A program made the position numbers and the translations under genes. Of a DNA stretch of 64,000 nt, positions 26,298 to 63,160 are shown piece by piece. Under the pieces are notes generated by a model that saw only the letters and a program-made list of their open reading frames with translations, did not search any database and was not told where the DNA came from. This DNA comes from Trueperaceae bacterium (GTDB lineage: Bacteria > Deinococcota > Deinococci > Deinococcales > Trueperaceae). The stretch spans positions 2,624,001-2,688,000 of the forward strand of contig OZ243927.1 in assembly GCA_965213925.1 (NCBI GenBank), read 5' to 3'. The number at the start of each line of letters is the position of its first letter. The stretch's first letter is position 1.

Positions 26298-26318
26298 TTC
26301 TCTTTACTTCTAGGGTTT

Positions 26319-27789: not shown

Positions 27790-29492
<1,703 letters not shown>

Positions 29493-40570: not shown

Positions 40571-40704
40571 GGAGTAGTGAGAGAAAAAGACTGAGGACTG
40601 AGGTTAAAAGTTTAGTCTTTACTTTTCTCTCAGTCCTCGGTCCTCAGTCCTTCAACCTCTCTTGTTATCAACTCATTGTTCATTGCTTTCCGAATCGAGG
40701 TGCA

Positions 40705-44974: not shown

Positions 44975-45002
44975 TTGCGTTTAACGCGCGCGTCTCTCGC
45001 AG
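44975..45002. repeat. 28-bp palindromic module-boundary site, copy A
   Basis: TTGCGTTTAAC GCGCGC GTCTCTCGCAG. Confidence 0.75.
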
Positions 45003-45199
45003 AAGAACGCTACACTTTCGAGCCTTTCCATTATTCCGCAGAGATCAAAGGAACCACAATCTATTGACCGTTCAGTACATATTGTCATAGAAGTTTACTG
45101 CACGAATAGGTCATTCCTCCCAAATTTCTCCTCCCAAATTTCTCCTCCGAAATCTGACGTGCGACAAGCGCTTATCTGTATTCTTACGGCTAAAGTTCT

Positions 45200-45320
45200 G
45201 AACGGACTCTTTCATCTCGTTATCGGGAAGCTCGAGCGCCACCCTCGTTTCGCGTTTGGTGTCGCTAAGAAGCGGTTCCAAATCCTTGAGTTCGGAGCCT
45301 GCCAAGACGCGCATGGTGTT
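45200..45320 (-). pseudogene. Short relic of a solute-binding/VWA-type protein downstream of the TelA-like gene
   Basis: RVLAGSELKDLEPLL resembles the start of such domains; the frame degenerates quickly. Confidence 0.35.
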
Positions 45321-45469
45321 TGTTTCCTATCCGCAGCTCGTTAAAAGTGATGTGAGCGCGAGAGTTAGAAAGAAGGCGTTGCACTGTATCTTCTGAAAGG
45401 ACAGGGAAAAGGGAGAGGCGGCAACGCTTTTTCTCCCTATCCCCCTTACCCTCATCTCTCTGTCAAACC

Positions 45470-46200
45470 TTAAAGCCTAAGTTCGTTATCCGCTGCGTTG
45501 TCTGGAACCTCGAGCGTCAAATCCGCTGTCGCCCCCGCCACCTGCTCATTGCGTACCCGGTCCAGATACGTCTTCGACTTGCCAATCTCCGCTTCGAGCG
45601 TGTCTACGGTTTGCTGCATCACGCCTAGAGCTGCCTGCTTGTATTCAGAAATCGCGTCCACCGCTGCGTAAACATTATTGAAAGCCTTCTGGAGTTGCTC
45701 GACATCCACGGTCGCTCCAGCCGCCTGCGTATGTACGCTCGAGGATTGCTTTCTCAAGAGCGCCGAGGTGGACGCGATGAGATTGCCTGTAGTCGCGTTA
45801 AGCGCGTCTATCTGGTCCAAGACGAGCTTCTGATTTGCCAGTCCCTGCGAGACCATGACCGCCGTGCGCAGCGCCGACACCGTCGTGGTCGAGGCGCGGT
45901 CCACACCCTTGATGAGTTCTAAGTTGTTCTTGCGGACCATGTCGAGCGCTAGATAGCCCTGAATAGAGACGGCGAGCTGCGTCTGTAAGTCCTGCACTTT
46001 CTGCCGCAAGTAAAAGAGCATCTCCTCTTCAACCACGCGGGCTTTTTCGGGCTCGGTGCGCTTGAGTTTGTCCGCACGTGCTAAGAGCGCTTCGTCCACT
46101 TTCCGCGCCAGATAGATATACGACTCCAACTTCTCCATCGCTTCCCACAAATTGACCTTCTCCTGCTCGATAGTCGCGTTGTCCTTGCGCAGCTCGTCTT
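45470..46200 (-). pseudogene. Toxic anion resistance protein (TelA-like), 5'-truncated
   Basis: QDELRKDNATIEQEK...NNLELIKGVDRASTTTVSALRTAV; fused abruptly to the RT gene at about 46200. Confidence 0.75.
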
Positions 46201-47941
46201 GCTGCCGGTTAAAAGGGTGTATCGCCTACTCTACCGGCCTGACCTCTACCTGCGCGCCTACGCCAAGCTCTACAAGAACGAAGGCGCACTGACACCAGGT
46301 GCCTCGGACGAAACCGTGGACGGGATGTCCCTAGCGAAAATTGATACCATCATCGAGGCGCTACGCCAAGAGCGGTATCGGTGGACGCCGGTACGACGCC
46401 GTTACATTCCCAAAAAGAATGGCAAGATGCGGCCTCTAGGGATGCCTTCCTGGTCGGACAAACTTCTTCAAGAAGTTATCCGCTCCATCCTGGAAGCCTA
46501 TTATGAACCGCGGTTCAGCGACCGTTCTCACGGCTTTCGACCGAAACGGGGATGCCACACAGCTTTGCGCAAAGTCACCCAAGAGGGTCGAGGTACAAAG
46601 TGGTTTATCGAGGGAGATATCTGCTCGTGTTTCGACAAGATTAACTTCGATGTCTTGTTGAACATCTTGCAGAAGAGCTTCCACGACAACCGCTTCCTGC
46701 GGCTTATCAAGGGGCTGCTCGAAGCTGGCTACCTGGAGAACTGGACCTTTCACCAGACCTACAGCGGTGTGCCGCAAGGGTCGATTGTCGGTCCAATCCT
46801 CACCAACCTGGTTCTGGACAGGCTGGACAAGTTTGTCGAGCACGAACTGATACCAGCTTACACACGCGGCGAACGCCGCAAGACCTACCCCCCGTATGTC
46901 GCCATCGCCAAAGCCGCTCACGACGCTCGGAAAGCAGGGAACTGGGAGACCGCGCGGCAACTGAGCCAGCAGGCCCAGACAATGCCGTCGCGCGACCCCG
47001 ATGACCCGAACTTCCGGCGATTGTGGTACCAAAGGTATGCCGATGACTTTCTGCTGGGGCTGAAAGGGCCAAAAGACGAGGCCGTGGCTATCAAGCAAGA
47101 GATTGCCGCCTTCTTACGCGACGAACTCAAGCTTGAGCTTAGCGAGGATAAGACCCTGCTGACCCACGCGCGCACGCAGAAAGCGCGTTTCCTGGGCTAT
47201 GAGGTCCACATTCTTCACGCTGACGATAAACACGACCACCGGGGACAACGCTGCATCAACGGCAGCGTCGGACTCCGGGTACCGTCGCACGTCATGAAAG
47301 CGCACTGCGCCAAGTACATGCGACGCGGCAAGCCCATTCACCTCCCACAAAGGCTCAGCAGCGATGCTTACAGCATCGTCAGCCAATATCAAGCGGAATA
47401 CCGCGGGGTCGTGCAGTATTACCGCATGGCCTACAACCTCCACACGCTGGGCCGACTCAAGCGCGTCACAGAACTCTCGCTAGTGAAAACGCTGGCGAAT
47501 AAGTTCAGGACGAGTTGCCAGAAAATCTATCGGCGCTACCGCACCACCATCGACCTCAAGGAGGGCAGCTATAAAGTCCTTCAAGTCAAAGTGGACCGTG
47601 GTCCTAAAAAGAAGCCACTCATCACCCACTTTGGCGGCATCCCGTTACGGTGGAACAAATGGGTAGCCTTGGACGACAACCAGAACAGTAAGATTTGGAA
47701 CGGGCGTAATGAAGTGGTGGACCGCCTTTTAGCGCAAAGCTGTGAGCTTTGTGGGTCGGTGGAGCACGTCGAAGTGCATCACGTCCGAAAACTGGCAGAC
47801 CTTGAACAAAGAGGGCGTAAGTCACGGCCCGAATGGATGCAAAGGATGTCGGCTCGCCGACGCAAGACGCTGGTGGTCTGCCTCACCTGCCACCAAGACA
47901 TCCATAAAGGGCACTACCACGGGAAAGGACTTTCATGTTGA
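46201..47941 (+). CDS. Group II intron reverse transcriptase/maturase with HNH domain; start lost
   Basis: RPLGMP, SHGFRP, EGDI..CFD, GVPQG, YADD; C-terminal CELCG...VEVHH...CLTCH. Confidence 0.93.
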
Positions 47942-47951
47942 GATTACTGGA

Positions 47952-48048
47952 GAGCCCCGTGACACGGAAAGCGGTCATGCGGGGTTCGGAGGGGGGATGT
48001 TGGAAAAGCGCTATCTTTGATAGGCAGCTCGCTGGCATCCTACCCTAC
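47952..48048 (+). ncRNA. Group II intron domains V-VI (3' end of the RT-encoding intron)
   Basis: GAGCCCCGTGAC-ACGGAAAGCG-GTCATGCGGGGTTC with AGC triad, followed by domain VI ending CCCTAC. Confidence 0.9.
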
Positions 48049-48103
48049 CGCACGCACGGCTCTTAGGGGGGAGGAAGGCAGCGATGTCTTCTTCCTACCC
48101 GAC
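48049..48103 (+). ncRNA. 3' half of domain V plus domain VI of a second (outer) group II intron
   Basis: CGCACGCACGGCTCTTAGGGGGGAGGAAGGCAGCGATGTCTTCTTCCTACCCGAC directly after the first intron end. Confidence 0.8.
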
Positions 48104-48176
48104 CTGTTGCACAGCGGCACATCGCTGAGCAACATATTTTATAGTGATTCGGATTACGTTCTCCTATACTCAGGTT

Positions 48177-49985
48177 ATGCCTCGCCTCATCGTCATCTCA
48201 TTTTTACTTTGTAGCTTTCTCGTGGGTTGCTCGAGCACCACGCCACTTTCACCACCAGGTGAAACGCCCCCTGTGACTGAGCCTAACCCAACTACCCCTA
48301 CCGAACCGACTTCACCTGAAACGCCCGCGCCCGAACCAACACCCACCACCCTTACGCCTGAAGAAGCTGACCGCATCGCCCTGACGCTCTGGCGCAACGA
48401 TGACCTCGGCAAACATCCCAAGGGCTCCTGCTCAGGCTGTCACGGCGCGGACTACTTTGATCTCGCCCGCATTGGCTCGGCGGATGAGGATATCGCTCGG
48501 CGAGCGGTGATCGACGGAGCGAGTCAACGAGAGGCGGACGCGCTTGTGCAAGCAGTCGGGCAGATGCGCCAAACGTACGGGCTAGTCGCAGACGACGCCC
48601 GCGCCTTTCGCCCCTTTCAACCGGGCGGCGAGGTGCTGCTGCCTAATCTTGACGACGCTGAGCACATCGTTTCGGTGGAGCGAGATATCGCTTTTGGTCA
48701 CCAGCTAGAAGCTCTCTTGCCAACCCTCTTCGGCGAACGTATCGCCTCACTAGCGGACGCAGAACGGGCGCGTGACGAACTCTTGGACCTCGCCCAAGGA
48801 GCTAACCAGGCGGGCGCGAACTCCCAGCGTATTCAACTTAGGGAGTTGCCTACCGGCATCACCTACCCACGCTGGTCAGCCGATCTGCACCACGGCGCAG
48901 ACGAGGGCACGCTCAACGATTGGCTTGCCGATGTCGCGCACGACGCCAAGCCGGAGCACCGCGAGGCGTGGTTGGGGCTGCAAGACGCCTACCTTGCAAC
49001 CCCTAGCGACGAGAACTTCTGGCGCATGTATCTCGCCGCTGAGGAGATGACCGCGACGCCCCTTTTCGGTGAGTGCACCATGACGGGGGGAAGGGCGCAT
49101 ATAGCCTGTGCGGACGTTAAGCGCTTTGCTCGAGAGAAATTCTTGAGCGCGTTGACGGGTCAGCACATGATGCGCTTAGAGGCGTCCGGGCGTGAGGGTT
49201 TTGCGGAGGGCGCACTAGCCTTTTCATACCTCGACACCGACCCCCGCTTCGACTTCATGAAGGAGCGTAAGAGCCGCACGCTTTTGCCCGCCAACCTCTG
49301 GGAAGTGGGCGACAAGGGGCGGAGCACCTTAGAAAATTCTCAGGCTGAGGGCAGTTTTCGCGAGAACTTAGCGAAGCTCGGCTATCCTGAGTTTGTGCAA
49401 GGCAGCATCGACCCCACACGCAGCGCGAGCCAGGAACAACATGAGTTACGCCTCGCCTGGTTCTGGTTAGGCTTCACCTTCGACCCCTCCTTTGCCCGTA
49501 TTCACAGCTCCAACGCCACCAAAGTGGGTGAGTATATGGTGGGAACGCTCCTCGATGAGCGGATGTTCATTCACAATACCTTTCACACCAACATGCGGCT
49601 GGTGACTAAGGGGTTTTTACCAGAAGCGAACAGAGAACAGGCAGGGCGCGAGCGCACTCTGGAACAGCTGCCCACCGTTTTTCGCATGAACTACGGTTAC
49701 TTTTGGGCTTACGGGCGCACGGTGCTCAATTGGCGGGAGAACAAAAAGCTTAACTTCGTTTACCCCGAAGACCTCAAAGCGGAGCAAGCCGACCTCTGGC
49801 ACCGCTTTACGGCGAACGGCTTTCGGATGAGCATGTTTCTTTACTTGGCGGCATTAGAAGAGGGCGCACCTAAAGACAGCGTTGCTTTTGACGCCCTAAC
49901 GACGCACTTTGAGACCTACGAACCTGAGCATCAAGAAGCAGACAATGCGCTGATGGCGCAGCTTAGGCGTAAGCTGGAGGAGTAG
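48177..49985 (+). CDS. Hypothetical lipoprotein with a single CxxCH heme-c motif
   Basis: LVGC lipobox, Pro/Thr linker, CSGCH. Confidence 0.7.
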   Translation: MPRLIVISFLLCSFLVGCSSTTPLSPPGETPPVTEPNPTTPTEPTSPETPAPEPTPTTLTPEEADRIALTLWRNDDLGKHPKGSCSGCHGADYFDLARIGSADEDIARRAVIDGASQREADALVQAVGQMRQTYGLVADDARAFRPFQPGGEVLLPNLDDAEHIVSVERDIAFGHQLEALLPTLFGERIASLADAERARDELLDLAQGANQAGANSQRIQLRELPTGITYPRWSADLHHGADEGTLNDWLADVAHDAKPEHREAWLGLQDAYLATPSDENFWRMYLAAEEMTATPLFGECTMTGGRAHIACADVKRFAREKFLSALTGQHMMRLEASGREGFAEGALAFSYLDTDPRFDFMKERKSRTLLPANLWEVGDKGRSTLENSQAEGSFRENLAKLGYPEFVQGSIDPTRSASQEQHELRLAWFWLGFTFDPSFARIHSSNATKVGEYMVGTLLDERMFIHNTFHTNMRLVTKGFLPEANREQAGRERTLEQLPTVFRMNYGYFWAYGRTVLNWRENKKLNFVYPEDLKAEQADLWHRFTANGFRMSMFLYLAALEEGAPKDSVAFDALTTHFETYEPEHQEADNALMAQLRRKLEE

Positions 49986-50062
49986 CAAGCTGTCGTCGCC
50001 TTGCTCAGCGCTTTTAGCCTGACCTTTATACAACAAACTAGGTCGAAACTTGCGTAAGCGCA

Positions 50063-50090
50063 ATGCAACAGACGCGCGCGTTCGTCGCAG
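50063..50090. repeat. 28-bp palindromic site, copy B
   Basis: ATGCAACAGAC GCGCGC GTTCGTCGCAG. Confidence 0.85.
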
Positions 50091-50227
50091 AAGCGCTGAA
50101 TCTGCTTCCACTTGTCTGTCAGCGTGTCTACAGTGTTCCCTTACGCCCCTCTGACATAGGCTTGCTAGGGTCACTTCAGCTACCGGTAGCTAGACTGACA
50201 CTCAATGACGCAGTGAGGAGAGGGTTT

Positions 50228-51859
50228 ATGCTACCTATAAAAGAGTTGTTATTCGCCAGCTTATTAGCGCTTACGGTTGGACAGGCACAAGAGACCGGAG
50301 GCGCTGAAACGGGCGGTGCCCAGGCATCAGGGCAGAGCGTTTCGGGCGTCGTCTACAACGATCTAAACGAGAACCGGCAGCGCGACGAAGGCGAAGCGGG
50401 GGTCGCAGGCGTGTCAGTCTCGAACGGGCTCGAGGTGGTGCAAACAGACGATAGCGGTCGCTATGAACTGTCCGCTCGTGACGAGATGATCATGTTCGTC
50501 ACCAAACCCGCTGGCTACATGGTCCCGGTGAACGAGGTGATGCTGCCGCAGTTCTACTACATCCACCAGCCTAACGGCACGCCCGAAGACTTAGACCTCG
50601 ACTTTGACGGCATCGAGCCGACAGGTCCGCTGCCTGACTCGGTAGACTTTCCGCTGCAAGCGTCCGAGCTGGATGAGTCGTTTGAGGCACTCGCCTTCGC
50701 CGACCCACAGCCCCGCGACGACACCGAACTCGACTACATCCGTGACGACGTAATTACGGAAATCGTTGGTACGGACGCCGCTTTCGGCATCACCGTCGGC
50801 GACATCATGTACGACGACCTGTCCCTGTTCGAGCGCTATAACGAAGTCGTTGCAGCGATCGGTATCCCCTTCTGGAACGTGCCGGGCAACCACGACCTGA
50901 ACTTCCAGTCCCCGGACGACGCTTACTCGCTCGAGACTTACAAGCGCATCTATGGACCCGCCTACTACTCGTTTGACTATGGGCAGGTGCACGTCGTGGT
51001 GATGGACAACGTCGAGTACTTCGGGGTGGAGGACGGCGAGTCGAGCGGCTACCGCGGCTACATCGGCGGAGCGCAGCTCTCTTGGCTCGAGAACGACCTG
51101 CGCTTCGTCCCGGAGGACAAGCTCATCGTCTTAGCCATGCACATCCCCCTGATCGACCAAGGGCGCGAAGACAGCGCCGGCGTCAACACCGCCGACCGCG
51201 AGGCGCTCTTCGAGGTCTTGGCGGGGCGCGAGCGGGTGCTCTCCATCTCGGGCCACGTCCACGCCAAGACCGAGCACAGTTACTTCGGCGAAGCAGACGG
51301 CTTTCAAGCGCCCAACCCGCTGCATCACATCACCCTGACGACCCTCTCGGGCGTCTGGTGGGGCGGGCCTGAGGACGAGCGCGGCATCCCCATCACCACC
51401 ACTCGTGACGGGCTGCCGAACGGTCATCACGTCCTCTCCTTTGAGGGCAACGCCTACCGCGAGCGGCTCAAGGGGGCGGGCGAAGCCGCCGACTATCAGA
51501 TGAACATCAGCGTCGCCCAGGCGCAGCAGGACGGCAACACCCTCGACCCCGCGCAGTGGTCCGGACCGCAAGTCGTCGCCAACGTCTTTAACGGCAGCGA
51601 GCTTTCCAGCGTCCGCTATCAGATCGACGGGAGCAAGATGCGGACGATGGAGCGCACCCTGCGCGGCGACCCCTACGTCAGCGAGCTGCAGGAGCGTTTC
51701 CCCGAGGAGATGCCCGGTCCTATCGACTCGTCGCACATCTGGACCGCACCCCTGCCGGACGACCTAGCGCCCGGCGTGCACCGGGTCCGCGTAGAAACGA
51801 CCGACCAGTACGCTCAGACCTTCCGGGCGACGCGCGTCTTCGAGGTCGCCGGGGAGTAG
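50228..51859 (+). CDS. Secreted calcineurin-like metallophosphoesterase
   Basis: Signal peptide; ADPQ, GDIMYD, PGNHD, HIP and SGHVH motifs. Confidence 0.9.
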   Translation: MLPIKELLFASLLALTVGQAQETGGAETGGAQASGQSVSGVVYNDLNENRQRDEGEAGVAGVSVSNGLEVVQTDDSGRYELSARDEMIMFVTKPAGYMVPVNEVMLPQFYYIHQPNGTPEDLDLDFDGIEPTGPLPDSVDFPLQASELDESFEALAFADPQPRDDTELDYIRDDVITEIVGTDAAFGITVGDIMYDDLSLFERYNEVVAAIGIPFWNVPGNHDLNFQSPDDAYSLETYKRIYGPAYYSFDYGQVHVVVMDNVEYFGVEDGESSGYRGYIGGAQLSWLENDLRFVPEDKLIVLAMHIPLIDQGREDSAGVNTADREALFEVLAGRERVLSISGHVHAKTEHSYFGEADGFQAPNPLHHITLTTLSGVWWGGPEDERGIPITTTRDGLPNGHHVLSFEGNAYRERLKGAGEAADYQMNISVAQAQQDGNTLDPAQWSGPQVVANVFNGSELSSVRYQIDGSKMRTMERTLRGDPYVSELQERFPEEMPGPIDSSHIWTAPLPDDLAPGVHRVRVETTDQYAQTFRATRVFEVAGE

Positions 51860-51891
51860 GGACAAACAGAGGCGTTCTGTCTGAATCAGGT

Positions 51892-51926
51892 GAACAGGAG
51901 CGGTCTACTATGAACCGCTCCTGTTC
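51892..51926. terminator. Hairpin after the phosphoesterase
   Basis: GAACAGGAGCGGT...ACCGCTCCTGTTC IR; no clear U-tract. Confidence 0.5.
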
Positions 51927-51978
51927 GCTCGGACTGAACATTTGTATAGAGGGGCACAGGAACGGAACCTATCTTTTT

Positions 51979-52006
51979 CTGCAACGAACGCGCGCGTTCG
52001 CCGCAG
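51979..52006. repeat. 28-bp palindromic site, copy C
   Basis: CTGCAACGAAC GCGCGC GTTCGCCGCAG. Confidence 0.9.
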
Positions 52007-52076
52007 AAGCTAACTGGGCTTTCCTACTACAAAACCCAGCTTATCTCTCGACTAACGCGATGACTTTCGGTGGCGA

Positions 52077-53471
52077 TCAAAGCGAAAAGAGTTGCCACCA
52101 GAACGCCCACGGCACGAACAGCATCGCCCCGCCCATCAAGAGGGCGAGCCAGACGCGCTCAACTCCCTGTACCGACTGCCGCCCCCGGTACCAGGTGGCT
52201 GTAAGTAGAACCGCCGTTAGCAAAAGTGCGAAAGCAAGAAGCTGGAGGAGGAACCAGCCGACTGGACGCCCTGCGATGACCGAGGTCACGCCTTCGCCGG
52301 ATGTCGCAGCGACATACCCCGTATAGGCGTACACGCCCCAAGGGGTGACTAGACCGAGCACAGTGAGAACCCAGGTACTCCACCTGCCTGGCATCCGCTG
52401 CGGCTTGGCGCGGCGAAGATACCTGACACCCGCTGCGACGAGGTACCCGCCAAAGACAAGCTGAAACAAGGCGAAGAAGGCGAGCTGCACCTGCCACCGG
52501 GCGAAGCCCTGCACATCCGTCACCGAAGGTCGGGTAGGGTGCCCGTCCGCTGGCGACGCGTCCAAGTGCGGTCCCGGTGGCGCGTCGGCGGTAACGTTCC
52601 GAAGCCATGAGGTCATCGTCTCGACGTAACCCGGGGCGAGCGCGCCGGTCACCTGGTCTTCAGCGACCGCGCTCGCGTCGTGGCTGGCGTCAGAAATAAA
52701 GCGCAGGACGTAGTGCCGATGACCTCCCCGCGCCAACGCTCGCCGCATAACACGGGCACTTTTGGCGGCAGGCATGACGCGATCCAGGGAACCCCAGAGG
52801 GCGAGGACAGGCTGACGGAGCTGCTCGAGAACGGGCGCGGGGTCGTATGTCCCTTCAGCAAAGAGCTCGGCCGAGATGAGGAAACGGTAGGTATGGTCCG
52901 CAAGAGCCCGCAGGCTCCCCTCTGAGGTGACGCCCTGCCGACGGAGCGCGCCCTCCGTCGCCCAAGCGCTCTGCTCTGCAGGCCCTACCCCCCCGCCTGC
53001 GACGGTGATCACGAACGCGATGTCGGTGGAGCGTGTGGCGGCTAGTGGCGCGACCCAGCCGCCTTCACTCAGACCCCACAAGCCGACCTGAGCGGGATTC
53101 ACCTCGTCACGCTGCTGCAGCATCTGCACGGCGGCGACAGCGTCGTCGGCTAGAAGAGAATACGAGCGGTCGCCTGCAGGGTTGGCGCTGTAGCCTTGGG
53201 TGCGCTTGTCGTAAAGCAGGGTGAGGAACCCCTCTCTTGCCAGGGCTTCAGCTACAGGGCGGTTCTCGTCACGCTTTCCAGGACCCGCCCCGTGAACGAG
53301 CACGACCGCCGGGACCCTGCCGCTCTGTTCGGGGATCAGCATTGTGCCGTGCAGCCTCACGTCACCGCTTTCGAAACTCAGCGCCTCTTCCGTCGCAGCC
53401 TGGGCGTGAGCGCCCGCCGCCGCAAGCCAGCAACTGAGGAGCAGCAACATCGTGAACACACAAAAGCGCAT
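52077..53471 (-). CDS. Alpha/beta hydrolase with signal peptide and C-terminal TM helices
   Basis: VHGAG, YDKR, GLSEGG nucleophile elbow. Confidence 0.85.
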   Translation of the reverse strand: MRFCVFTMLLLLSCWLAAAGAHAQAATEEALSFESGDVRLHGTMLIPEQSGRVPAVVLVHGAGPGKRDENRPVAEALAREGFLTLLYDKRTQGYSANPAGDRSYSLLADDAVAAVQMLQQRDEVNPAQVGLWGLSEGGWVAPLAATRSTDIAFVITVAGGGVGPAEQSAWATEGALRRQGVTSEGSLRALADHTYRFLISAELFAEGTYDPAPVLEQLRQPVLALWGSLDRVMPAAKSARVMRRALARGGHRHYVLRFISDASHDASAVAEDQVTGALAPGYVETMTSWLRNVTADAPPGPHLDASPADGHPTRPSVTDVQGFARWQVQLAFFALFQLVFGGYLVAAGVRYLRRAKPQRMPGRWSTWVLTVLGLVTPWGVYAYTGYVAATSGEGVTSVIAGRPVGWFLLQLLAFALLLTAVLLTATWYRGRQSVQGVERVWLALLMGGAMLFVPWAFWWQLFSL

Positions 53472-53664
53472 AAATTTAGCTGTCCCGATGACGACCCAAG
53501 CTTCGGTCGTTACGGCGTGAACCGTTCGAGGGCGAGGGTACAAAGACTGGTGAGTGCGTCATCATGCGACCTCATCCCTAGCGTAGCCCAGCAGCGCCAC
53601 AAACCGCATGTGCTTAAAGTCATGCACTCTCTACTATCTTGACGTCTAGCTGCTTTGCGGCGTT

Positions 53665-53692
53665 GTGCAAAAGACGCGCGCGTTCGTCGCAC
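53665..53692. repeat. 28-bp palindromic site, copy D
   Basis: GTGCAAAAGAC GCGCGC GTTCGTCGCAC. Confidence 0.88.
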
Positions 53693-53748
53693 AAAGTTTA
53701 AGCTTCAGAAGGCTTATGAAGTGACCTAAAAGTTCTAGGAAGTGGGCA

Positions 53749-54276
53749 TCACCCGAGAGCTTCCAGGCTTTTGCGCGCATTCCCCGCTACCGACTTCCGC
53801 TCATCTTCCCTCAGGCGTATCAGGTGGGGTCGGAGCCACGCTTTGAGGCTTTCGTCCTCCTTAGCCCATTGGGTCAAGGTTTTCATCGTGTTATTTAGCA
53901 CGATCCAATCCGTATGGGTCGCAAGCGTATGTTTAAGATGGTCGGTAGCCTGTGAGCGTTGCTTAGCTGTCATGCGGTCGCTCAACATGCCGAATAGGAG
54001 GGCGAGCGTCCACTGAGTGGAGGCTTGATCGATCTGCGCGATCTCTTCTAAAAGCCGGTCGAGGTAGGGCTCTGACCACTCGGGGTGCGCGAGGGTCACG
54101 CGCTTGACGGCGTTCGACGTCCTCAGCCGCACGATCTCGTCAGCGCTGAAGTAACATCGGTATAGCTCCTCAAGTCGCGTCCTATCGCTCAGCACGATCT
54201 CCACAACTTCGAGAGTACGCCCCAGAGAGTTGGGATGTCCTCCGGTGAGCATGGATTCGAATGTTTCTTCCGCCAT
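53749..54276 (-). CDS. Hypothetical HEAT-repeat-like protein
   Basis: GGHPNSLGRT...VRLRTSNA...DWIVLN...RKSVA; all-helical character. Confidence 0.65.
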   Translation of the reverse strand: MAEETFESMLTGGHPNSLGRTLEVVEIVLSDRTRLEELYRCYFSADEIVRLRTSNAVKRVTLAHPEWSEPYLDRLLEEIAQIDQASTQWTLALLFGMLSDRMTAKQRSQATDHLKHTLATHTDWIVLNNTMKTLTQWAKEDESLKAWLRPHLIRLREDERKSVAGNARKSLEALG

Positions 54277-54469
54277 CGCTAGCCCTGAATGTAGCACGCT
54301 CTTCTACCCGCGTTGACTCGGTCGAAAACTCTAGCTTGATAGCGGAGACGGTCGCAAACCGCCGGGCAAAGCCCGCTATACGGTGTCTCGCGAGCTTTTC
54401 GCTTGCCAAACCCGTGACAGAAGTGAGGCGCTTTGTGGCAGATCGCTGCTGTGGGAAAGAGTTGCCACT

Positions 54470-54497
54470 GTGCGGCAGACGCGCGCAACTCTTGCAC
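54470..54497. repeat. 28-bp palindromic site, copy E
   Basis: GTGCGGCAGAC GCGCGC AACTCTTGCAC. Confidence 0.85.
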
Positions 54498-54532
54498 AAA
54501 ACCAGAGCAACACGTCGTTATAAACTGCTTAC

Positions 54533-54985
54533 TCATTCCTTCGCCCGCTCAACAAGCGCTGCAATCCTCTCCTCGAAGCTGAAAGAGCCGAGCGGCTCGA
54601 CCTCGACTTGACGAAAGTCCGGATGGTCGGGGTTGAGAAGCACATTAAAGCTTTCAGGTGCGACCACTGAGGGAACGCGCAGAGCAACGCTTCTCGCTTC
54701 GCGCACCCAGGTGTCACCGTAGGACCGCGTCTGAACTCGGTCATTGATCCCGAGGTCGTCAGGCGCATTCTCGAGAAGAGTCTCATCGAAGGTACAGCGG
54801 TAAAGGTTATAACCCTGTAGGCTGGCGTAGACCTCCCAACCGGCTAGAATCTCTAGTGCAGCTAGAGCAGCGTGCTCCGCTGTATACACCATAACCGTGC
54901 CCTCGCTATTCCAACGCCCTGGTGCGCCGCGTGGTCTGAACGCCGCACTCAAACTGTTCGTAAAAGCTAAGCGGTAGACCTTCAA
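54533..54985 (-). CDS. RES-domain toxin
   Basis: GRWN...VYTAEH.ALAALE...VPSVV...NVLLNPDHP. Confidence 0.9.
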   Translation of the reverse strand: MKVYRLAFTNSLSAAFRPRGAPGRWNSEGTVMVYTAEHAALAALEILAGWEVYASLQGYNLYRCTFDETLLENAPDDLGINDRVQTRSYGDTWVREARSVALRVPSVVAPESFNVLLNPDHPDFRQVEVEPLGSFSFEERIAALVERAKE

Positions 54986-55425
54986 AGAAAAGTGCCGTCC
55001 TCCAGCGCGGTAAGCATGTTTTGAAGCTTGCTGACCCCGACGCGCGTAGCCAGCAAGTCGATAGGTCTAGCTCCGTCTAGGGCAGCCTTAGGGCTCCCGA
55101 ACCAAGCTTTCGCCCCCTCCTGTCCGAGAATGCTCGCGACCCGTGCAAACAGGGTAAGCGCACTGTAGGTACGGTCTAAAAGCTCGACGCTCATATCTGG
55201 GTTCTTACTCTTGCGCGAGCGGCTGATGCCGAGCACAGCGAGTGCTTCGGTTTTGCTGATATCAAGCAGGGAAGTCAAACGTCTTAGAACCTGCTCGAGG
55301 GAGGACTCGCCAACGACAGTTTGCTTGAGCACGGCCTCAGCTACCTCGTTCGGCGTAGTGTCGAGTACCTGTTCAAACAGTGCCTCGCGGGTAGAAGCAA
55401 AGGAAGTCTGTATCACGTTCAACAT
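54982..55425 (-). CDS. Xre/MbcA/ParS-type antitoxin
   Basis: AWFGSPKAALDGARPIDLL...LEDGTF C-terminus; overlaps the RES toxin. Confidence 0.88.
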   Translation of the reverse strand: MLNVIQTSFASTREALFEQVLDTTPNEVAEAVLKQTVVGESSLEQVLRRLTSLLDISKTEALAVLGISRSRKSKNPDMSVELLDRTYSALTLFARVASILGQEGAKAWFGSPKAALDGARPIDLLATRVGVSKLQNMLTALEDGTFL

Positions 55426-55454
55426 AGTAGCATGAAACTTCAACGTTTAGCGCT

Positions 55455-55482
55455 CTGCAGGAGTTGCGCGCAACCGCCGCAG
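55455..55482. repeat. 28-bp palindromic site, copy F
   Basis: CTGCAGGAGTT GCGCGC AACCGCCGCAG. Confidence 0.85.
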
Positions 55483-55657
55483 AAGGTTCTACGCGAACTA
55501 CTACTTCTATTAACTTGCGCTCCCTGCTCCACACCTCCTTTAACACAGGCGAGCCGTAGAGGTGCATGGTCGGCGATCACTAGGCTACCGAAGCTCTGCG
55601 AATTGCGCTTAAGCGTTAAAATGTCTTTACCTTAAAGAGCACAGAAAGGGCAGCGCT

Positions 55658-57082
55658 ATGAAGATTCGGTGGTTATATTCTATATTCGGTGTGCCCCTGG
55701 TCGTTCTCCTCTTGGGTGCCTTTGGCATCTCTCTTCAGGCGGGCTCAGAAACCGCAAATCCGCAAGCCCCGAACACTAAGCACGATCTGGGACGCGGCGT
55801 CAACTTCGGCAATGCGCTCGAGGCTCCGAGCGAAGGGCTCTGGGGTCTGACGCTCAAGTCAGCCTACTTCGAGGTGGTTAAGCGCGCGGGCTTCGACACG
55901 GTGCGACTCCCCGTCAGTTGGACACACCACGCCGCAACGACTTCGCCCTACGCCATCGATCCGGACTTTTTTAGGCGCGTCGACTGGGCGGTGGACGAGG
56001 CGCTGAAACGAGGCCTCAACATCATTATCAACATGCACCACTACGACGCGCTCAATTCGAACCCGCGCGAGGAGGGGGGGCGCTACCTCGCGCTCTGGCG
56101 GCAGATCGCCGAGCGCTACAAACACGAGAACGCCCTTGTCTATTTCGAGCTGCTCAACGAACCCCACGAGCAGTTCAACCGCGAACCCGAACTGTGGAAC
56201 GACTTGCTCGCGAAAGCGGTCGAGGTCGTGCGCGAGAGCAACCCGACGCGCCCGCTCATCATCGGTCCGGTAGGTTGGAACACGACCTCACGCTTGGACG
56301 AGCTCACGCTGCCCGACGACTCTAACCTCATCGCTACGATTCACTTCTACGAGCCCTTCGAGTTTACCCATCAGGGCGCGGCCTGGGTGACAACGCCGCC
56401 GCCTGCGGGGGTGAGTTGGACGGGCGAAGAGAGGATGCTGGTCTGGGACGATTGGTCTTGGGATACCCGCGTAAGGTGGCGCGCCTCCGAAGGGGACCAG
56501 CCAGCGCTCATGCTGACCTTCGAGAAACCCTGGGCAGGCTTCAAGCTCCACCCGGCTAAACCCGAAGAGGGCTACGACACCCTACATCTACGTGCTAACG
56601 GCGCTTTGGAGCTTCTCATTGGTTGTGAGCACGGGCTCCGGACGATTGTCACGCGCGTCGGCTGGCACGACTACTTGGTCGACTTAAGCACCTGCGAGGA
56701 GATAGGCAACCTTGTCATCCAGAACGCCAGCGATCAAGCGCCCGCCTCCATCTACATCCAGACATTAGAGCTTCGCGGCAGGAACGGCGAGCTTCCCCTC
56801 ATTATGACGAGCAAGGACGTGCTGAGAGAAACGCTCGACAGGGCAGCGGGTTGGGCTGCGGCGCGAGACATCCCTCTTCTACTAGGCGAATTCGGCGCGT
56901 ACAGCGTGGCGGACATGAGCTCGAGGGTGCGCTGGACGCGCTTCGTACGTGAGGAAGCAGAGCGTCGCGGCTTCGCCTGGGCCTACTGGGAGTTCGGAGC
57001 GGGTTACGGCGTTTACAGCCCTGAAACGGACCAGTGGCGCACGCGTCTGCTAGAAGCGTTGTTACCCCGCCTGACGCGCTAA
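55658..57082 (+). CDS. Glycoside hydrolase family 5 (endoglucanase-like)
   Basis: RGVNFGNALE, VRLPV, ELLNEP, HFYEP, GEFG, WAYW. Confidence 0.93.
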   Translation: MKIRWLYSIFGVPLVVLLLGAFGISLQAGSETANPQAPNTKHDLGRGVNFGNALEAPSEGLWGLTLKSAYFEVVKRAGFDTVRLPVSWTHHAATTSPYAIDPDFFRRVDWAVDEALKRGLNIIINMHHYDALNSNPREEGGRYLALWRQIAERYKHENALVYFELLNEPHEQFNREPELWNDLLAKAVEVVRESNPTRPLIIGPVGWNTTSRLDELTLPDDSNLIATIHFYEPFEFTHQGAAWVTTPPPAGVSWTGEERMLVWDDWSWDTRVRWRASEGDQPALMLTFEKPWAGFKLHPAKPEEGYDTLHLRANGALELLIGCEHGLRTIVTRVGWHDYLVDLSTCEEIGNLVIQNASDQAPASIYIQTLELRGRNGELPLIMTSKDVLRETLDRAAGWAAARDIPLLLGEFGAYSVADMSSRVRWTRFVREEAERRGFAWAYWEFGAGYGVYSPETDQWRTRLLEALLPRLTR

Positions 57083-57106
57083 AGCTAGGCAAGAGTCTTG
57101 TGCCTT

Positions 57107-57134
57107 GTGCAACGAACGCGCGCGTTCGCCGCCT
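57107..57134. repeat. 28-bp palindromic site, copy G
   Basis: GTGCAACGAAC GCGCGC GTTCGCCGCCT. Confidence 0.85.
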
Positions 57135-57313
57135 AAAACTTGGGTCACCCTCGGTCCGTAGTTCAACCTAAAACCTCTTGCCGAAATGGACGTCAAGGAG
57201 AGTTCGGAGGGCGGCGCAGATTATTTGCCGCGCGGAGAAAAGAAGCGGCGTCACAGGGTGTAAGCCCAAAGAACATAGGAGCATTCACAGCCTTGAACGC
57301 TTGCACTGTCGGT

Positions 57314-58291
57314 TCAGCCTTTCTCGAGGACCCAGTCGAGGAGCGCCTCCAAGTTTGCTGTTGCTAAACCGACGACCCGGTCAGCGCCTCCGTAGTAGAG
57401 GTAAATTGCCCCGTTTACGACGGGATTACCTGTGCCGAAGACTACAAAGGGTACGTCGCCCTTGATCTCCCACATTTCTTTGGGCGCTAGAATAGGCGCT
57501 TCGGGCCGCTTGAGCACCTTACGAGGATCATCTCGGTCAAGTAGGGCGGCCCCCATACAGTAGATATGATGTTCGTTGTAGCCGTGATAGAGCACGAGCC
57601 AACCCACTTCAGTGAGAATAGGGGGACCCCCCGCACCAACACGTTTGCCGTCCCAAAGACCAGGGCGCGGCGTTAGGATTTCCGCGTGCTCACGCCAGCT
57701 TTTCATGTCATGACTTGACGCCAGCCAAATGCTGGGGGGGCGGCGGTGAAAGGTGACGAATTTGCCGCCCACCTTAGCGGGAAAGAGCGCGTGGTCCTTG
57801 TTGTCTTCACCTTCGACCACTGGCCCTAAAGTTTCCCAAGTGATGAGGTTGTCGCTCACAGCGTACATAGGGGTGATCCCTGAAGGAGGTGCGCCGACCG
57901 GCGCATGAAATCCCTTGCGACTATAGGCGGTGTAGGCCATGTAGAAGCGCCCCTCTAATTCGGTGACGCGGGGGTCTTCTACCCCCCTCGCATCCCGCTC
58001 CGAGCTTGGCGCTAGAACGGAGTGTCGCAACCGGTTCCAGGTCACGCCGTCCGAGGACACGGCGTAACCGATACGGGAAACGTAGTCGAGTCCTTGCGCC
58101 CGGTAGTGCATGTGAAAGAGGCCGTTATAATAGATTACCGAGGGATTAAAGGTATTGAGCGCTTCCCAAGGGTGGATAGGCTCGGGTCTCAAGACGGGGT
58201 TGGCGGGATGGCGCTGGAAATGACCACTTTCGGCTAGATGGTAGAAATCAGAGACTGAGTTTAGATTGGCTGAGGCGGGGTTAGAGGTCAT
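57314..58291 (-). CDS. GH130-family glycosidase/phosphorylase
   Basis: NPVL, FNPS, YRAQ, EDPRV, NKD, YYGGAD. Confidence 0.88.
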   Translation of the reverse strand: MTSNPASANLNSVSDFYHLAESGHFQRHPANPVLRPEPIHPWEALNTFNPSVIYYNGLFHMHYRAQGLDYVSRIGYAVSSDGVTWNRLRHSVLAPSSERDARGVEDPRVTELEGRFYMAYTAYSRKGFHAPVGAPPSGITPMYAVSDNLITWETLGPVVEGEDNKDHALFPAKVGGKFVTFHRRPPSIWLASSHDMKSWREHAEILTPRPGLWDGKRVGAGGPPILTEVGWLVLYHGYNEHHIYCMGAALLDRDDPRKVLKRPEAPILAPKEMWEIKGDVPFVVFGTGNPVVNGAIYLYYGGADRVVGLATANLEALLDWVLEKG

Positions 58292-58483
58292 AAGGGCTCC
58301 AGAAAGGTAGGATGAGGTCGGTAGCTACTATGTTGGCGCACATAGCGGATGCGCAGGCGACTTAATATGGGAGCTGCACGACCTAATTGTAACGACTTTT
58401 TAGCAACACGCCTTTTCTGAAGTTTGAATCGACTATGCTTGACCTTTACGTCAAGAACCAGGTTGAGGAATACATAAGACATT

Positions 58484-58498
58484 CTGCAACGAACGCGC
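58484..58498. repeat. Truncated site, copy H (left arm plus GCGC)
   Basis: CTGCAACGAAC GCGC, identical to the copy C left arm; right arm absent. Confidence 0.7.
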
Positions 58499-58907
58499 TG
58501 AAAATACGTGCGAATGAGGCCAAGCCAGCCTAAAGGATGCCGACAAGGTCTACTAAACGTAAGAAATAACGGATGAAAATTCATATTCTACAGACGTATA
58601 ACCGAGTCGCACCTGCGACTCGGTTATACGTGTAGTTGCTTACCTTACCCGAGCGGATACGAGTACCAATGGACGCTCTCACTGTGCCAACGACAGATGC
58701 AAATGCTGCCTGTATTAGGTCGTGTGCGGCTTGGACGAGCTGCACAGCACGCCCTCGGTCACCGAGCTTACAAACGGCGATCCAACCCGCGCCGCCCGTG
58801 CGTCCCCACGCTGAGGTCAACGTACCCTTCTATTCCTAAGATAGCTTTTAGGGTAGCTAGAGAGTTAGCGAAGAGAACGTTTAAGAAGCCCAAGACGTAA
58901 AGAAAGC

Positions 58908-59875
58908 CTACTGCGCGAACTGCGCTGGATAATGTACCTTAAAGACCGTCTCGAACGAGCTGAAGAGGTCTAAGTACTGCTCCATGTAGCGCGTCAAGAG
59001 GAAGTTCTCCCGCACGCTCTCCCTAGCCTTCTTGCCCATCGTCTCGCGCAGTTCTTCGTCTTTGAGGAGTTGCACCAGCCGCGCCGCCGCCTCGTCTACG
59101 GACGAGACCAAAAAGCCGTTCTCCCCGTCCTGAATCTGCTTCGTGATGCCGCCTACTCTGCCGCCGATCACCGGCGTCTCCTTCCACATCGCCTCGGTCA
59201 CGGTACGGTAAGCCCGAAGCCCTCCCGGATAGACTTCTGCATGACCACAGCGGCGCGGCGCTGCAAGGTGTTGACCAAAGTGGTGTCGTCGCCACAGGGC
59301 AAGATGAGGATGCGCTCTTCCTGTTGGCTTTTGATCGACTCGTAGATTTCGGTGCCTTCGGGGTCGTCCGAGGCGAAGTTGCCAAGAAGGACGAGCGTCG
59401 CGTCCACCTCTTGGCGTGCCTTCTTGAACGCTTCGATAACACCGACGGGGTCCTTCCAGGGGTCGAAGCGCGAGACCTGCACGACGAGCGGGAGGTCGGT
59501 GGGGATGTCGTAATGTGCTAAGCGCTCGTCCATCTCCTCGTCTGTGAGCGTGATGTTCTTGCGGCTGAAGGGGTCGATGGCGGGCATGAAGAAGACTTGG
59601 GGGGTCTCCAAGTCCTGCTTGTACGCCTCTAAGCTTATGATGATCGCGTCGTAACGTTCCACGAAGGGCGTGAGGTAGCGCCACAGCGCGGGGTTAGGAT
59701 TCGAGAGGTCGATGTGGCAGCGCCAAATCCAGGGGCGGTGCTTGTCGAAGTGGGTGATGAGCGGCAAGGGCTGTGGGTCGTGGACGATGACCAGGTCCGA
59801 GTTGAGGTTACTGCGCACCGCGTTTTCATAGACCACTTGTTCAAAGGTGTGCTGCTTGATGTCGTTCAGCAAATT
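58908..59875 (-). pseudogene. TreT-like GT4 glycosyltransferase, 5'-truncated and frameshifted
   Basis: HDPQP, WRCHID, QVSRFDPWK, EGFGLT|VTEAMWK; 5-bp ACGGT duplication at 59200-59209. Confidence 0.85.
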
Positions 59876-60277
59876 CGCTTTATCGCGCTGTCCATGCACG
59901 AAAAGCCCGAGTACGTTCAGGGCTTTTTAGAAGCGGGCGGGTCAGGCTACGTGCCTAAAAGTGCCGTCGAGACGCAGCTTTTAGATGCGATCGCTGCCGT
60001 ATCACGGGGTGAATACTACGCGCCTGCCAAGCTCCTAGCCGACCTCGCCAAGGAGATGGCGGGACTCGATCCCTACCGCAACGTAAAACTCACCCACAGA
60101 GAGCTAGAGGTCGTCGAGCACATTGCGCACGGGCGAACCCATAAGGAGATCGCCTCGGTTATCGGCATCAGCGAGAAGACGGTCGCGACCTACCGCGAGC
60201 GGGCGGCGGAGAAGCTGGGCTTAAAAACGCGAGCTGAACTCGTGAGGTGGGCGTTAGAGCAGAACATGCTGAGCTGA
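59872..60277 (+). pseudogene. NarL/LuxR response regulator, N-terminus missing
   Basis: IALSMH...GYVPK...LTHRELEV...ISEKTVATYR; upstream sequence is the antisense of the glycosyltransferase. Confidence 0.82.
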
Positions 60278-61118
60278 GGGTCGTCTGACCGTTACAGAGC
60301 GAGAGAATAGGGCACAACGACGCGCCCGGTCCTACGTTTAGCGAGGTCTTCTTTTTTGTTCTCCGCGAGGCCCCACCTCATTCTATCCGCCCCTCTGTAG
60401 GACTTTCTTCCACACCCTCTGTAGGAACAGCGCGGACTTCTTGTCGGTGACGCGCTTTATAAGCTTAGGAGTTACGCGGTTGACTTCAAGTTGTACCAAG
60501 GCTTGGCAAGGTAGTCGTGGATAGCATCACGGACGATATTGTACTTGGCTTGAGGTTCTCCGCATTAAGCGTGCTCGAGTGACGGTATCTTAGCGGAGTG
60601 TTTGGAAAAACTTGCTCGGCTATAAGTTGAGGTTCATACTGAGCTGTGAATCAACTTTTCTCCCTACCGCACTGCGTTACCAAAGAAGTTTACTCAGATA
60701 AAGGCAGCTTTCGCGTGGTTGCTCGTAGCAATCATGAGTGCTTTGTCCTGATTGCGAACGGGTAAGCGACCGGGTTCATAGCCGATATATTCGTGCGCCT
60801 CGTGACCTTCCGCTATGTACACAAGCCGTTCGTCTCCATTTATATGTCCGACGTTTCCGTTGTTTGAACGCCTCATGCGGCAGGTAGACCTTTGCCGAGC
60901 TGCTCCCGCCTCGTGCCAGACGAACTTCTCGACTCATACGGATTCCGTTTAATTCCCTATCACCGAGGCTTTTTCTCGGTGATAGTCCATACACTCCATC
61001 CGTTTCGCGGAGGCGAAAACTACGTAAATCCTTATTCCTATTCGCTACACTCAGATTGATTCGCTATGTTAGCGAATCAATCGGAATCCGTATCACAGAG
61101 GCATAACACGAGGTCGGT

Positions 61119-61760
61119 TTAGCCACGGACGTCGAAATCATAGAGATGCATAAAGGCGTCGAAGCCTTCTCTCACCACCTGTAAGGGATCGTCGAGCATC
61201 TCCAGCCGCGTAGACAGTGCCGCGAGCTGGGCGTAGCGAACGGCAAGGGACTCCGCGTTCGCACCGAGCGTGGTCAGCTCTTCGCTATACGCTGCTAAGT
61301 TCTGCTGAAGCGTGTTGTTCTGCTTAGTCGTCTGTTGATAAAGCACGCGTGTGTGTAGAAGATTACTGAGCCGCAGCAAAAGCTCCTCTGGATCGATGGG
61401 GCGAGACAAGAAGTCGTTCACGCCGGCCTCGAGCGCACGCTGTTTAAGGGAGTCGCGGGTATCTGAGGTGACCATAAGGATTGGCAAGAAGCATTCAGGT
61501 CCTTGCTGTTGCCGGAGCGATATAGTCATCTCTAAACCGTCTTGTCTGGGCATGTGATAGTCAGTAATAACAGCATCGGGTTGACATGCAGTCGTGAAGG
61601 TTAGTACCGACTCCGCATCCATAACGGTTGACACCCGCTGGAAACCCTGCTTGTTAAGGTGAGCCTTGAGCAGGGCTAGATTAGCTAGACTGTCGTCGAC
61701 CAGCAAGATATGACTTTCGAAAATTTTGGTGCGCCGCTCTTTAGTGATCCAAGAATTCAT
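61119..61760 (-). CDS. Response-regulator receiver protein, possibly truncated
   Basis: ILLVDD, TDYHMPRQDG, AGVNDFLSRP, then a coiled coil. Confidence 0.75.
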   Translation of the reverse strand: MNSWITKERRTKIFESHILLVDDSLANLALLKAHLNKQGFQRVSTVMDAESVLTFTTACQPDAVITDYHMPRQDGLEMTISLRQQQGPECFLPILMVTSDTRDSLKQRALEAGVNDFLSRPIDPEELLLRLSNLLHTRVLYQQTTKQNNTLQQNLAAYSEELTTLGANAESLAVRYAQLAALSTRLEMLDDPLQVVREGFDAFMHLYDFDVRG

Positions 61761-62039
61761 GAAGTGTACCCCTAGTGCCCTTTCAGAGCGAGGCTAACCA
61801 CTATGTTGCGCTGCTTTCTATAAAAAGTTAAACATGCTTCTATTGTTAGAAAGTTTATAGCGATTGAGAGTGGTTTTTTTGTAACTCGCGCATAACGACT
61901 AGACGGTATCGCGAGCACCGTTCTTTCAGTTGCTGCAGCTTACGAAGGATCACCCTATCGTCCGCAAAATCTCTTGCTTTAATGACCTTCATAGGAGGTA
62001 GCACGATGTTGGGCAATTTAGCGGTAGAAGCCGAACCTT

Positions 62040-62067
62040 CTGTGCGAGTTGCGCGCGTTCGCTGCAC
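62040..62067. repeat. 28-bp palindromic site, copy I
   Basis: CTGTGCGAGTT GCGCGC GTTCGCTGCAC. Confidence 0.82.
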
Positions 62068-62074
62068 AGCAGTG

Positions 62075-62503
62075 CTACGCGTTAGGCGGGTGCCAGCCCA
62101 CCTCAATCCAGAGCCGCCTCGCTTGCACCAGGGCCTCACGGTTGAGCGTTAAGGCTTCAACTGTTGCCCTGCCGCTCGCTGTCTTACCCGCAATATTCAG
62201 CCCTGTCTCCACCCACTCGAAGTGCTCACGCCATACTTGTTGGCGCGGATGATAGAGCGGGACGAGCTGAGCTGTGTTCGGGTCGGTCGCGGCGACCCGC
62301 TGCCCCTTAGCGAGGTTGCAGTCCCAGCAGGCGAGGCAGAGGTTCGCGGTATCGCTGCTGCCTCCGAGAACCTCTGGGATGATGTGATCCACCATAAAGC
62401 GCATCCCTGCTACCGCTTCCTGGGTTTGACAATAGGCGCAGCGGAAGTTGAAATGCGCCGCCACTTCGCGACGTAGAGCGAGGGATAGCTTGGTTTTCGA
62501 CAC
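62075..62503 (-). CDS. HNH endonuclease
   Basis: CAYC...VDHIIP...GG...NLCLACWDCN..K. Confidence 0.92.
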   Translation of the reverse strand: MSKTKLSLALRREVAAHFNFRCAYCQTQEAVAGMRFMVDHIIPEVLGGSSDTANLCLACWDCNLAKGQRVAATDPNTAQLVPLYHPRQQVWREHFEWVETGLNIAGKTASGRATVEALTLNREALVQARRLWIEVGWHPPNA

Positions 62504-62512
62504 CTATTGAGG

Positions 62513-62908: not shown

Positions 62909-62954
62909 AGCTCTAGTTTAGCACGGTGCAAATCTCAAAACTGGCATAAACCTT

Positions 62955-62982
62955 CTGCGCGAGTTGCGCGCGTCTCACGCAC
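62955..62982. repeat. 28-bp palindromic site, copy J
   Basis: CTGCGCGAGTT GCGCGC GTCTCACGCAC. Confidence 0.82.
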
Positions 62983-63160
62983 AAGCGAATCATGCCAACA
63001 GCCAAACAGCGCATCTACACCGCGGCATTCCTTAGCTTAATCCATCCCTGTGGCTGTGACAGTAAGGCGTGGAAGTGCTACCTATATTTTGCACAAGTGC
63101 GATTGGCGTGATCGTTTTTTGGGCGACTGACTAAAACCAGCTTGGTTGCTAGATTGCTTC

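Follow-up and report, generated by a model that had tools for sequence, protein, structure and literature searches.

Remnant of an ORF-less group II intron with a nested second intron at a probable cassette-junction site in a Trueperaceae genome

Introduction

Three kinds of target are described for bacterial group II introns in the available part of PMC4424553, namely homing sites, transcription terminators and integron attC sites, and the same text describes both ORF-less introns and twintrons as rare in bacteria. The group IIC-attC introns (e.g. S.ma.I2), as far as the available text of PMC4424553 and PMC3001079 goes, home in the recombination sites that separate gene cassettes; they recognise a stem-loop together with a short IBS1, have no EBS2, and have as their target attC sites, which belong with IntI. 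Introns other than class C are also found in cassette arrays: group IIB introns occur in halophile integron arrays and CALINs, where, according to the accessible portion of PMC7923331, several are 5′-truncated down to domains V/VI and a portion of the ORF, and toxin-antitoxin cassettes lie nearby. One of these IIB introns is reported to follow an attC directly and to have exons of poor conservation, and that portion of the report describes no EBS-site pairing (PMC7923331).

Twintrons have been described from Euglena, Thermosynechococcus, Trichodesmium and Methanosarcina, the bacterial examples being intergenic in the excerpts available of PMC4424553, PMC4649490 and PMC2882425. The dif (pdif) modules of Acinetobacter plasmids offer a further parallel, in that, in the available extracts of the literature, they are flanked by short sites composed of an arm, a 6-bp centre and an arm, recur in different contexts, and have sites targeted by a separate mobile element of the IS1202 family. 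Within the same partial texts on dif modules and pdif-targeting IS, the term ‘group II intron’ does not occur.

The locus described here lies in a stretch of 64,000 nt from a Trueperaceae bacterium (GenBank GCA_965213925.1, contig OZ243927.1, positions 2,624,001–2,688,000; ‘the window’, to which unprefixed coordinates refer). The original prediction, made from the sequence alone, held that a group II intron appears to be inserted inside a cassette-boundary site at 48049–48113. Our reading, which we consider very probable as a whole, is that the intron tail at this position belongs to an ORF-less intron that homes by base pairing into cassette-junction sites, that a second intron nested within it makes the element a twintron, and that the window copy is a remnant left by deletion.

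Methods

The genome carrying the window (G000; 4.75 Mb) was compared within a set of 41 genomes that includes two sister species (G001 and G002) as well as G005 and G008. Five copies of the outer intron were studied: that of the window (W), copies A, B and C elsewhere in G000, and a fragment in G002. Sites in G000 numbered 55 with a strict pattern and 73 with a looser one. A weight matrix was built from the 110 arms of the 55 strict sites and scored on the first 12 bases of each 3′ exon, with 400,000 random genomic 12-mers as the null; true arms had a median score of 12.8 bits, and matrix positions 7–10 are fixed by the pattern that collected the sites.

Results

Sites, cassettes and an associated recombinase

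The sites have the form TGCR-N6-GCGCGC-N6-YGCA, i.e. an arm, a 6-bp centre and a second arm over 26–28 bp, and 55–73 copies are present, in clusters, in G000. These clusters lie at 44976–62985 of the window and at C1:0.80–0.89, 2.67–2.71, 2.90–2.91, 3.20–3.23 and 3.40–3.49 Mb, and the clustered sites separate cassettes of one or two genes of unrelated function (metallophosphatase, alpha/beta hydrolase, RES/Xre, GH5, GH130, HNH, TetR). The first site in the window cluster, S0 (TGCGTTTAAC-GCGCGC-GTCTCTCGCA; 44976–45001, no strand assigned), is the left border of a telA cassette, and homology to G002 begins inside it, at 44983. S1 (TGCAACAGAC-GCGCGC-GTTCGTCGCA; 50064–50089, likewise without a strand), the site that the original prediction had called copy B, is the right border of a cassette whose gene (48177–49985, + strand) encodes a predicted lipoprotein that contains a CSGCH motif and belongs to no Pfam family; here the homology to G002 includes the left arm and the centre and then breaks off.

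Four window cassettes recur in G001 or G002 at other loci, with matches ending at sites: the segment from S0 to the telA break (93% identity, G002), the lipoprotein cassette (48104–50094; G002), the S1–S2 cassette (95%, G001) and the S4–S5 cassette, a RES/Xre pair (98%, G002). Because homology usually stops at the site centre, each arm appears to stay with its cassette; in the S4–S5 comparison, at 98% identity, differences nonetheless occur in the far left arm and the ~12 bases preceding it. With one pattern applied throughout, 41 sites were counted in G000, 20 in G001, 36 in G002 and nine in G005, against one in a single other genome and none in the remaining 36, while a reversed control pattern gave 0–1 per genome. 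In G002, the sites on either side of the RES/Xre cassette (L132 2091–3107, corresponding to C8:735590–736606) both have the centre GTGCGC, and since such variant centres exist, a census of GCGCGC undercounts the sites. A variant centre common to both sites would be consistent with a requirement that spacers be identical.

Two genes for Xer-like tyrosine recombinases, 88% identical to one another, are present in G000 (C1:883816–884682, + strand; ~3232339–3233205, - strand), each ~90 nt from a site in a cluster. The G002 gene (C8:85793–86602) is likewise ~90 nt from a site, and G001 carries a homolog at C4:381238–382098; one G001 copy has an internal TGA. The scores of the recombinase, 207 bits for the XerC/XerD equivalogs (cut-off 335) and 112 bits for integron integrases (cut-off 265), fall short in both cases, and a protein atlas look-up returned generic tyrosine-recombinase clusters only. 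Close homologs (87–92%) were found in exactly four of the 41 genomes, the same four that bear sites, and in 0/37 of the others, although the site-bearing genomes are kin, so that this co-occurrence amounts to about two independent lineages. G008 has one partial match of 50%. In the mechanism that we propose, the sites would be gene-cassette junctions, with exchange at the site centre, probably carried out by this dedicated Xer-like enzyme, which presumably acts on the sites; the clusters look like a cassette system independent of integrons.

An intron could also home into sites that are regulator operators, REP-like sequences or terminator palindromes and have nothing to do with recombination. 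The sites are indeed intergenic palindromes, recombination is deduced here from comparisons between genomes, and the two arms within a site are not more complementary than random arm pairs (3.96 versus 4.14 mismatches). Low complementarity between arms argues against a selected hairpin as well, however, and sites of that kind would not readily explain why cassette matches between species end at the centre with an arm mostly travelling with the cassette, why both sites of one G002 cassette share a GTGCGC centre, why a recombinase gene lies ~90 nt from a site and co-occurs with the sites in 4/4 against 0/37 genomes, or why the sites are clustered and not dispersed. We regard this alternative as unlikely, and treat the sites below as probable cassette junctions.

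Outer and inner introns

Between S0 and the lipoprotein gene, a fragment of telA (45470–46201, - strand; positions 108–332 of 332 of the Pfam TelA profile) is fused head-on to a fragment of a group II intron (46202–48048, + strand), here called the inner intron, of which the window retains the 3′ 1847 nt of 2436 nt. This fragment carries an ORF, open from 46199 to a stop at 47941, with RT, maturase and HNH domains, followed by domains V/VI at 47950–48048 (Rfam RF00029, 46.0 bits), and ends in ...CCTACCCTAC at 48048. BLAST identified four copies of the inner intron in G000, the window fragment and three full copies elsewhere, with 100% identity over 1847–1850 nt, each of them followed by an outer-intron tail.

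In the window this tail corresponds to the 55 bases of 48049–48103 (CGCACGCACGGCTCTTAGGGGGGAGGAAGGCAGCGATGTCTTCTTCCTACCCGAC), followed by CTGTTGCACA at 48104–48113. It consists of the 3′ strand of the outer domain V (CGCACGCACGGCTC; 48049–48062, + strand), the 5′ strand of which is deleted in the window copy and was read off copies A, B and C, and of domain VI (48066–48103, + strand; fold -23.6 kcal/mol), in which the A at 48097 (seventh base counted from the 3′ end) is bulged and which closes with ...CCCGAC. Sequence and domain V/VI structure thus agree with the original prediction in ending the outer intron with CCCGAC at 48103 and starting the 3′ exon at 48104. Across four distinct tails, five of the 15 pairs of the outer domain VI show compensatory changes, and both the branch A and a 3′ end of the AY type are present.

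In copies A, B and C the outer domain V reads GAGCCGTGTGCGGTGAAAGT|CGCACGCACGGCTC, with the inner intron, bounded by GTGCG...CTAC, at the position of the bar. Joined, it reads GAGCCGTGTGCGGTGAAAGTCGCACGCACGGYTC, ~34 nt with the AGC triad, a GNRA loop and a 2-nt bulge. The G002 fragment has this domain uninterrupted (RF00029, 62.6 bits), and GGTGAAAGT|CGCACGC is contiguous both in G002 and in one X5 metagenome contig that skips the inner intron. As the outer domain V is contiguous without the inner intron in these two sequences, the element is a twintron, in which the second intron (RT-maturase-HNH, 2436 nt) would have homed into the outer domain V. The inner intron of Euglena psbF also lies in domain V. 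A 7-nt EBS2 candidate was seen for the inner intron, for which no clean 6-nt EBS1 was found.

The outer intron itself measures ~830 nt, made up of a 777-nt 5′ part and a tail of 54–55 nt. Its domain I matches Rfam RF02012 with 39.0 bits (gathering score 34), and its 5′ end in copies B and C, GTGCGAC, conforms to GUGYG; the window copy is without a 5′ end. No ORF of more than 109 aa overlaps the 777-nt part and domain IV contains no RT, an intron-encoded RT in domain IV being typical of bacterial group II introns but not defining. All four matches to a group II RT model in G000 are the inner intron copies, and the same model search found none in G001, G002 or G005. Only ~140 nt of the outer intron is kept 5′ of the inner intron in copy A; like W and the G002 fragment, this copy is 5′-truncated and lacks the upstream half-site, which makes three such copies out of five. 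The segment 48049–48103 is the tail of an ORF-less group II intron, and the window copy is a broken remnant with a nested second intron. We infer that the outer intron splices and retrohomes, and likewise the identity of the protein that mobilises it without an ORF of its own, the inner RT being the only group II RT of the genome.

Target recognition and insertion point

Over 3293 nt there is no difference between copies B and C (100% identity), while the DNA outside the 26-bp site is unrelated between them, and both read ...TGCGACTAACGCGCGCGT|GTGCGAC...CCCGAC|CACACGCA. At the 5′ junction, ...TGCGACTAAC-GCGCGC-GT | GTGCGACGTGAAG, the exon ends in an arm, the GCGCGC centre and GT, as the original prediction had anticipated for full-length copies. 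It had also pointed to EBS/IBS pairing as a check, and this was found over the last 14 exon bases: EBS1, ACGCGCG (outer nt 304–310, in a hairpin loop), is complementary to CGCGCGT at exon positions -7 to -1, and EBS2, CGTTAGT (outer nt 214–220, mostly unpaired in the minimum-energy fold), to ACTAACG at -14 to -8. When domain I was shuffled 20,000 times, both 7-mers were present in 10 of the shuffled sequences; B and C, the two full-length outer copies found, being identical, the 5′-exon evidence rests on one intron variant. Target choice would accordingly work by base pairing, of EBS1 with CGCGCGT and of EBS2 with ACTAACG, the inner part of the left arm.

The 3′ exons, CTGTTGCA in W (48104–48111, + strand), CTTGCGCA in A and CACACGCA in B and C, all have the form C-N3-YGCA, and position +1 is C in every copy. 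That of W, described in the original prediction as a right arm without its first two bases, scores 11.85 bits, a value reached by 7e-5 of random 12-mers, and the corresponding probabilities are 6e-4 for A, 3e-3 for B and 4e-5 for C. The 3′ exon of the G002 fragment, CAGTTACGCA, is a weak fit to an arm (1.6 bits, p = 6e-3), or fits with a shift of two bases. The insertion point falls within the right arm, with 2 nt between it and the 3′ edge of the GCGCGC centre, and the outer intron lineage would home at this position into sites of the TGCR-N6-GCGCGC-N6-YGCA form.

The near reverse-complement relation that had been noted between the window 3′ exon and the left arm closing the same cassette is real: the reverse complement of TGCAACAGAC (50064–50073), GTCTGTTGCA, is GT plus the first eight bases of the exon. 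It does not extend to a general rule, as the facing arms of adjacent sites have a mean of 3.81/10 mismatches (n = 43) versus 4.14 for random arm pairs. The match is thus specific to the 48104–50094 cassette, and complementary arms at both cassette ends were rejected as a property of the system.

Uninterrupted sites in relatives

The window segment 48104–50094 has its G002 counterpart at C8:39283–41269 (86% identity), and the match begins at the first base of the 3′ exon. At that place G002 has an intact site in the same register, TGCGACGAAC-GCGCGC-AA|CTGTTGCA, followed by the same flank. The 5′ flank of copy B matches G001 with 97% identity over 3774 nt, and that of copy C matches G002 over 3786 nt; in both cases the match breaks off precisely at the 5′ splice site, which in the relative falls within a site that is uninterrupted. 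On the other side, the 3′ flank of copy B (four differences in 322 nt) is joined in an X5 contig to an uninterrupted GCGCGC-GT-CACACGCA site. A second X5 contig carries the outer 5′ end and the same 18 exon bases followed by a different flank; as a single loose contig end this is a hint only. Run X7, which bears the same species label, contained almost none of the stretch. Full-length copies, pairings and empty orthologous sites together support the original prediction of an intron lineage homing to the site.

The left arm at copy B (TGCGACTAAC; L002 8727–8744) differs from that of its G001 ortholog (TGCAGCAGAC; L133 2017–2042) in 4/10 bases despite the 97% identity of the flank, possibly as a result of exon co-conversion at homing or of fast arm turnover.

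Among unoccupied sites in G000, two match the full 15-nt target (-14 to +1), at C1:1240834–1240859 and 2693919–2693944, both in minus orientation, and six more do so with one mismatch. That perfect targets are still empty suggests that current mobility is low or nil.

These empty targets would also suit a twintron moved as a cassette by a site-specific recombinase, i.e. inserted between sites at the DNA level without retroelement homing, as would the fact that what B and C have in common around the element is the 26-bp site in full (18 + 8 bases) and no further sequence, and that sites of this type do bound mobile cassettes. Integration by a recombinase, however, would leave a complete site on each side, whereas here one site with a single GCGCGC is split off-centre, precisely at the intron boundary (GUGCG...AC), the 14 bases upstream pair with EBS1 and EBS2, and the empty orthologous sites are single. 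We therefore think it very improbable that the twintron travelled as a cassette. That an outer intron fragment came to lie beside 8–10 arm-like bases by chance has in its favour only the brevity of the match in the window alone, where TGCAACAGAC with at most one mismatch occurs four times against 3.75 expected, and can be dismissed, being already refuted by the intact G002 site at the same base, the site split in full by the intron in B and C, and an arm fit of p = 7e-5 in W in the register shared by A, B and C. Intron homing into the sites remains the reading followed here.

History of the window copy

The window copy is without its 5′ exon, in line with the original prediction: the intron fragment starts at 46202 within the inner RT ORF and abuts truncated telA, which lies on the other strand. 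A stretch of 1171 nt (45031–46201) is 100% identical to part of a cassette with a full telA (C1:3484186–3485151) located upstream of copy C, and compared with the arrangement at copy C the window misses C1:3476148–3484506, i.e. 8,359 bp. A single deletion of this length would account for the loss of the left half-site, of the outer intron's entire 5′ part, of ~590 nt at the start of the inner intron and of the 5′ end region of telA, leaving the window copy as a dead remnant. Insertion of the intron into telA was rejected, as no TelA N-terminus can be read downstream of the intron. Since the outer domain VI of the window differs from that of copy C, the window copy is a mosaic, formed either by recombination within the identical inner intron or by cassette exchange at a site.

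Discussion

The group IIC-attC introns are the closest parallel in habit. Both they, in the parts available of PMC4424553 and PMC3001079, and the outer intron home in sites that separate cassettes, which places the intron between cassettes and not in genes. As drawn in the original prediction, this likeness holds as an analogy; it does not extend to class or target, as the outer intron shows neither class C recognition nor an attC/IntI target. Against the recognition features available for IIC-attC introns, it has a 7-nt EBS2 in addition to a 7-nt EBS1, and its target is a GCGCGC-centred site of 26–28 bp linked to a Xer-like recombinase and not an attC. It is, furthermore, ORF-less and interrupted by an HNH-encoding intron.

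With the halophile IIB introns it shares, on the basis of the accessible portion of PMC7923331, residence in a cassette array without belonging to class C, 5′ truncation of several copies and the proximity of toxin-antitoxin cassettes. The position relative to the site differs: here the intron has entered the core of the site itself, 14 bases are paired, and there are orthologs in which the site is empty. From the known twintrons it differs in that the intron split by the inner one is ORF-less, with the break in domain V, and in that the inner intron encodes the only group II RT found in the genome. The sites share with the pdif sites of Acinetobacter plasmids, as these are described in the excerpts available, the organisation of arms around a 6-bp centre, the flanking of modules that recur in different contexts, and the role of target for a separate mobile element, in this case a group II intron in place of an IS1202-family element. 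In contrast to pdif, however, dozens of sites form chromosomal clusters in another bacterial lineage, the centre is GCGCGC, the arms are quasi-symmetric, and a dedicated recombinase paralogue scores below the XerC/XerD equivalog cut-offs.

What is new here is a twintron that uses ordinary EBS/IBS homing and has as its target the core of a cassette-junction site that is not of the integron type. A wider interpretation can be offered tentatively, and we would sooner doubt it than rely on it: the sites and the Xer-like recombinase may form a chromosomal cassette platform independent of integrons, with the twintron as its specific retroelement parasite, reading the core of the site by pairing and served by the RT of the nested intron. 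If this is true, splitting of a site by the twintron would lock the neighbouring cassettes together at the DNA level, and identical twintron copies would offer homology for rearrangement of the array. The comparison suggests convergence, in which retroelements settle in recombination sites between cassettes, locations that are safe, repeated and horizontally spread. The intron junctions acted here as a natural probe, yielding evidence for cassette borders with an associated recombinase. The original prediction took the intron as independent support for the site being functional; the intron does show the site to be a homing target, but its role as a cassette border draws on the separate comparative evidence.

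Searches for further members of the lineage covered two metagenome scans, a scan of reference genomes for domain V, and 40 relatives. The outer domain V pattern was found at no fewer than 109 loci of the reference genomes, in many phyla and with unrelated 3′ exons, and only two of these loci showed any similarity to outer domains I–III; the pattern is thus class-wide and no marker of the outer intron lineage. A 21-nt sequence from the outer tail had 0 matches in the metagenome scan, and a junction 21-mer had six, all of which lacked domain V, looked coding-like and were rejected. The outer 5′ part matched nothing among the 40 relatives beyond the G002 fragment, and the two metagenome scans and the reference-genome scan gave no further lineage members.

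Several other features of the window were noted in passing. Repeats of the CCTCAGTCCTCAGTCC type are found in direct and inverted copies at 26274–26304, 30328–30399 and 40580–40659. A match to the Rfam 5_ureB_sRNA family at 29055–29350 (+ strand; 112.4 bits) probably reflects coding conservation of the urease beta subunit and not an sRNA. At 60930–61096 lies a repeat of ~110–170 nt with inverted arms (60936–60962 and 67–93), which has dozens of matches in G001 and G002 at 69–86% identity and has the appearance of a MITE or a small dispersed repeat; a many-copy stretch at ~10320–10500 of L001 resembles it.
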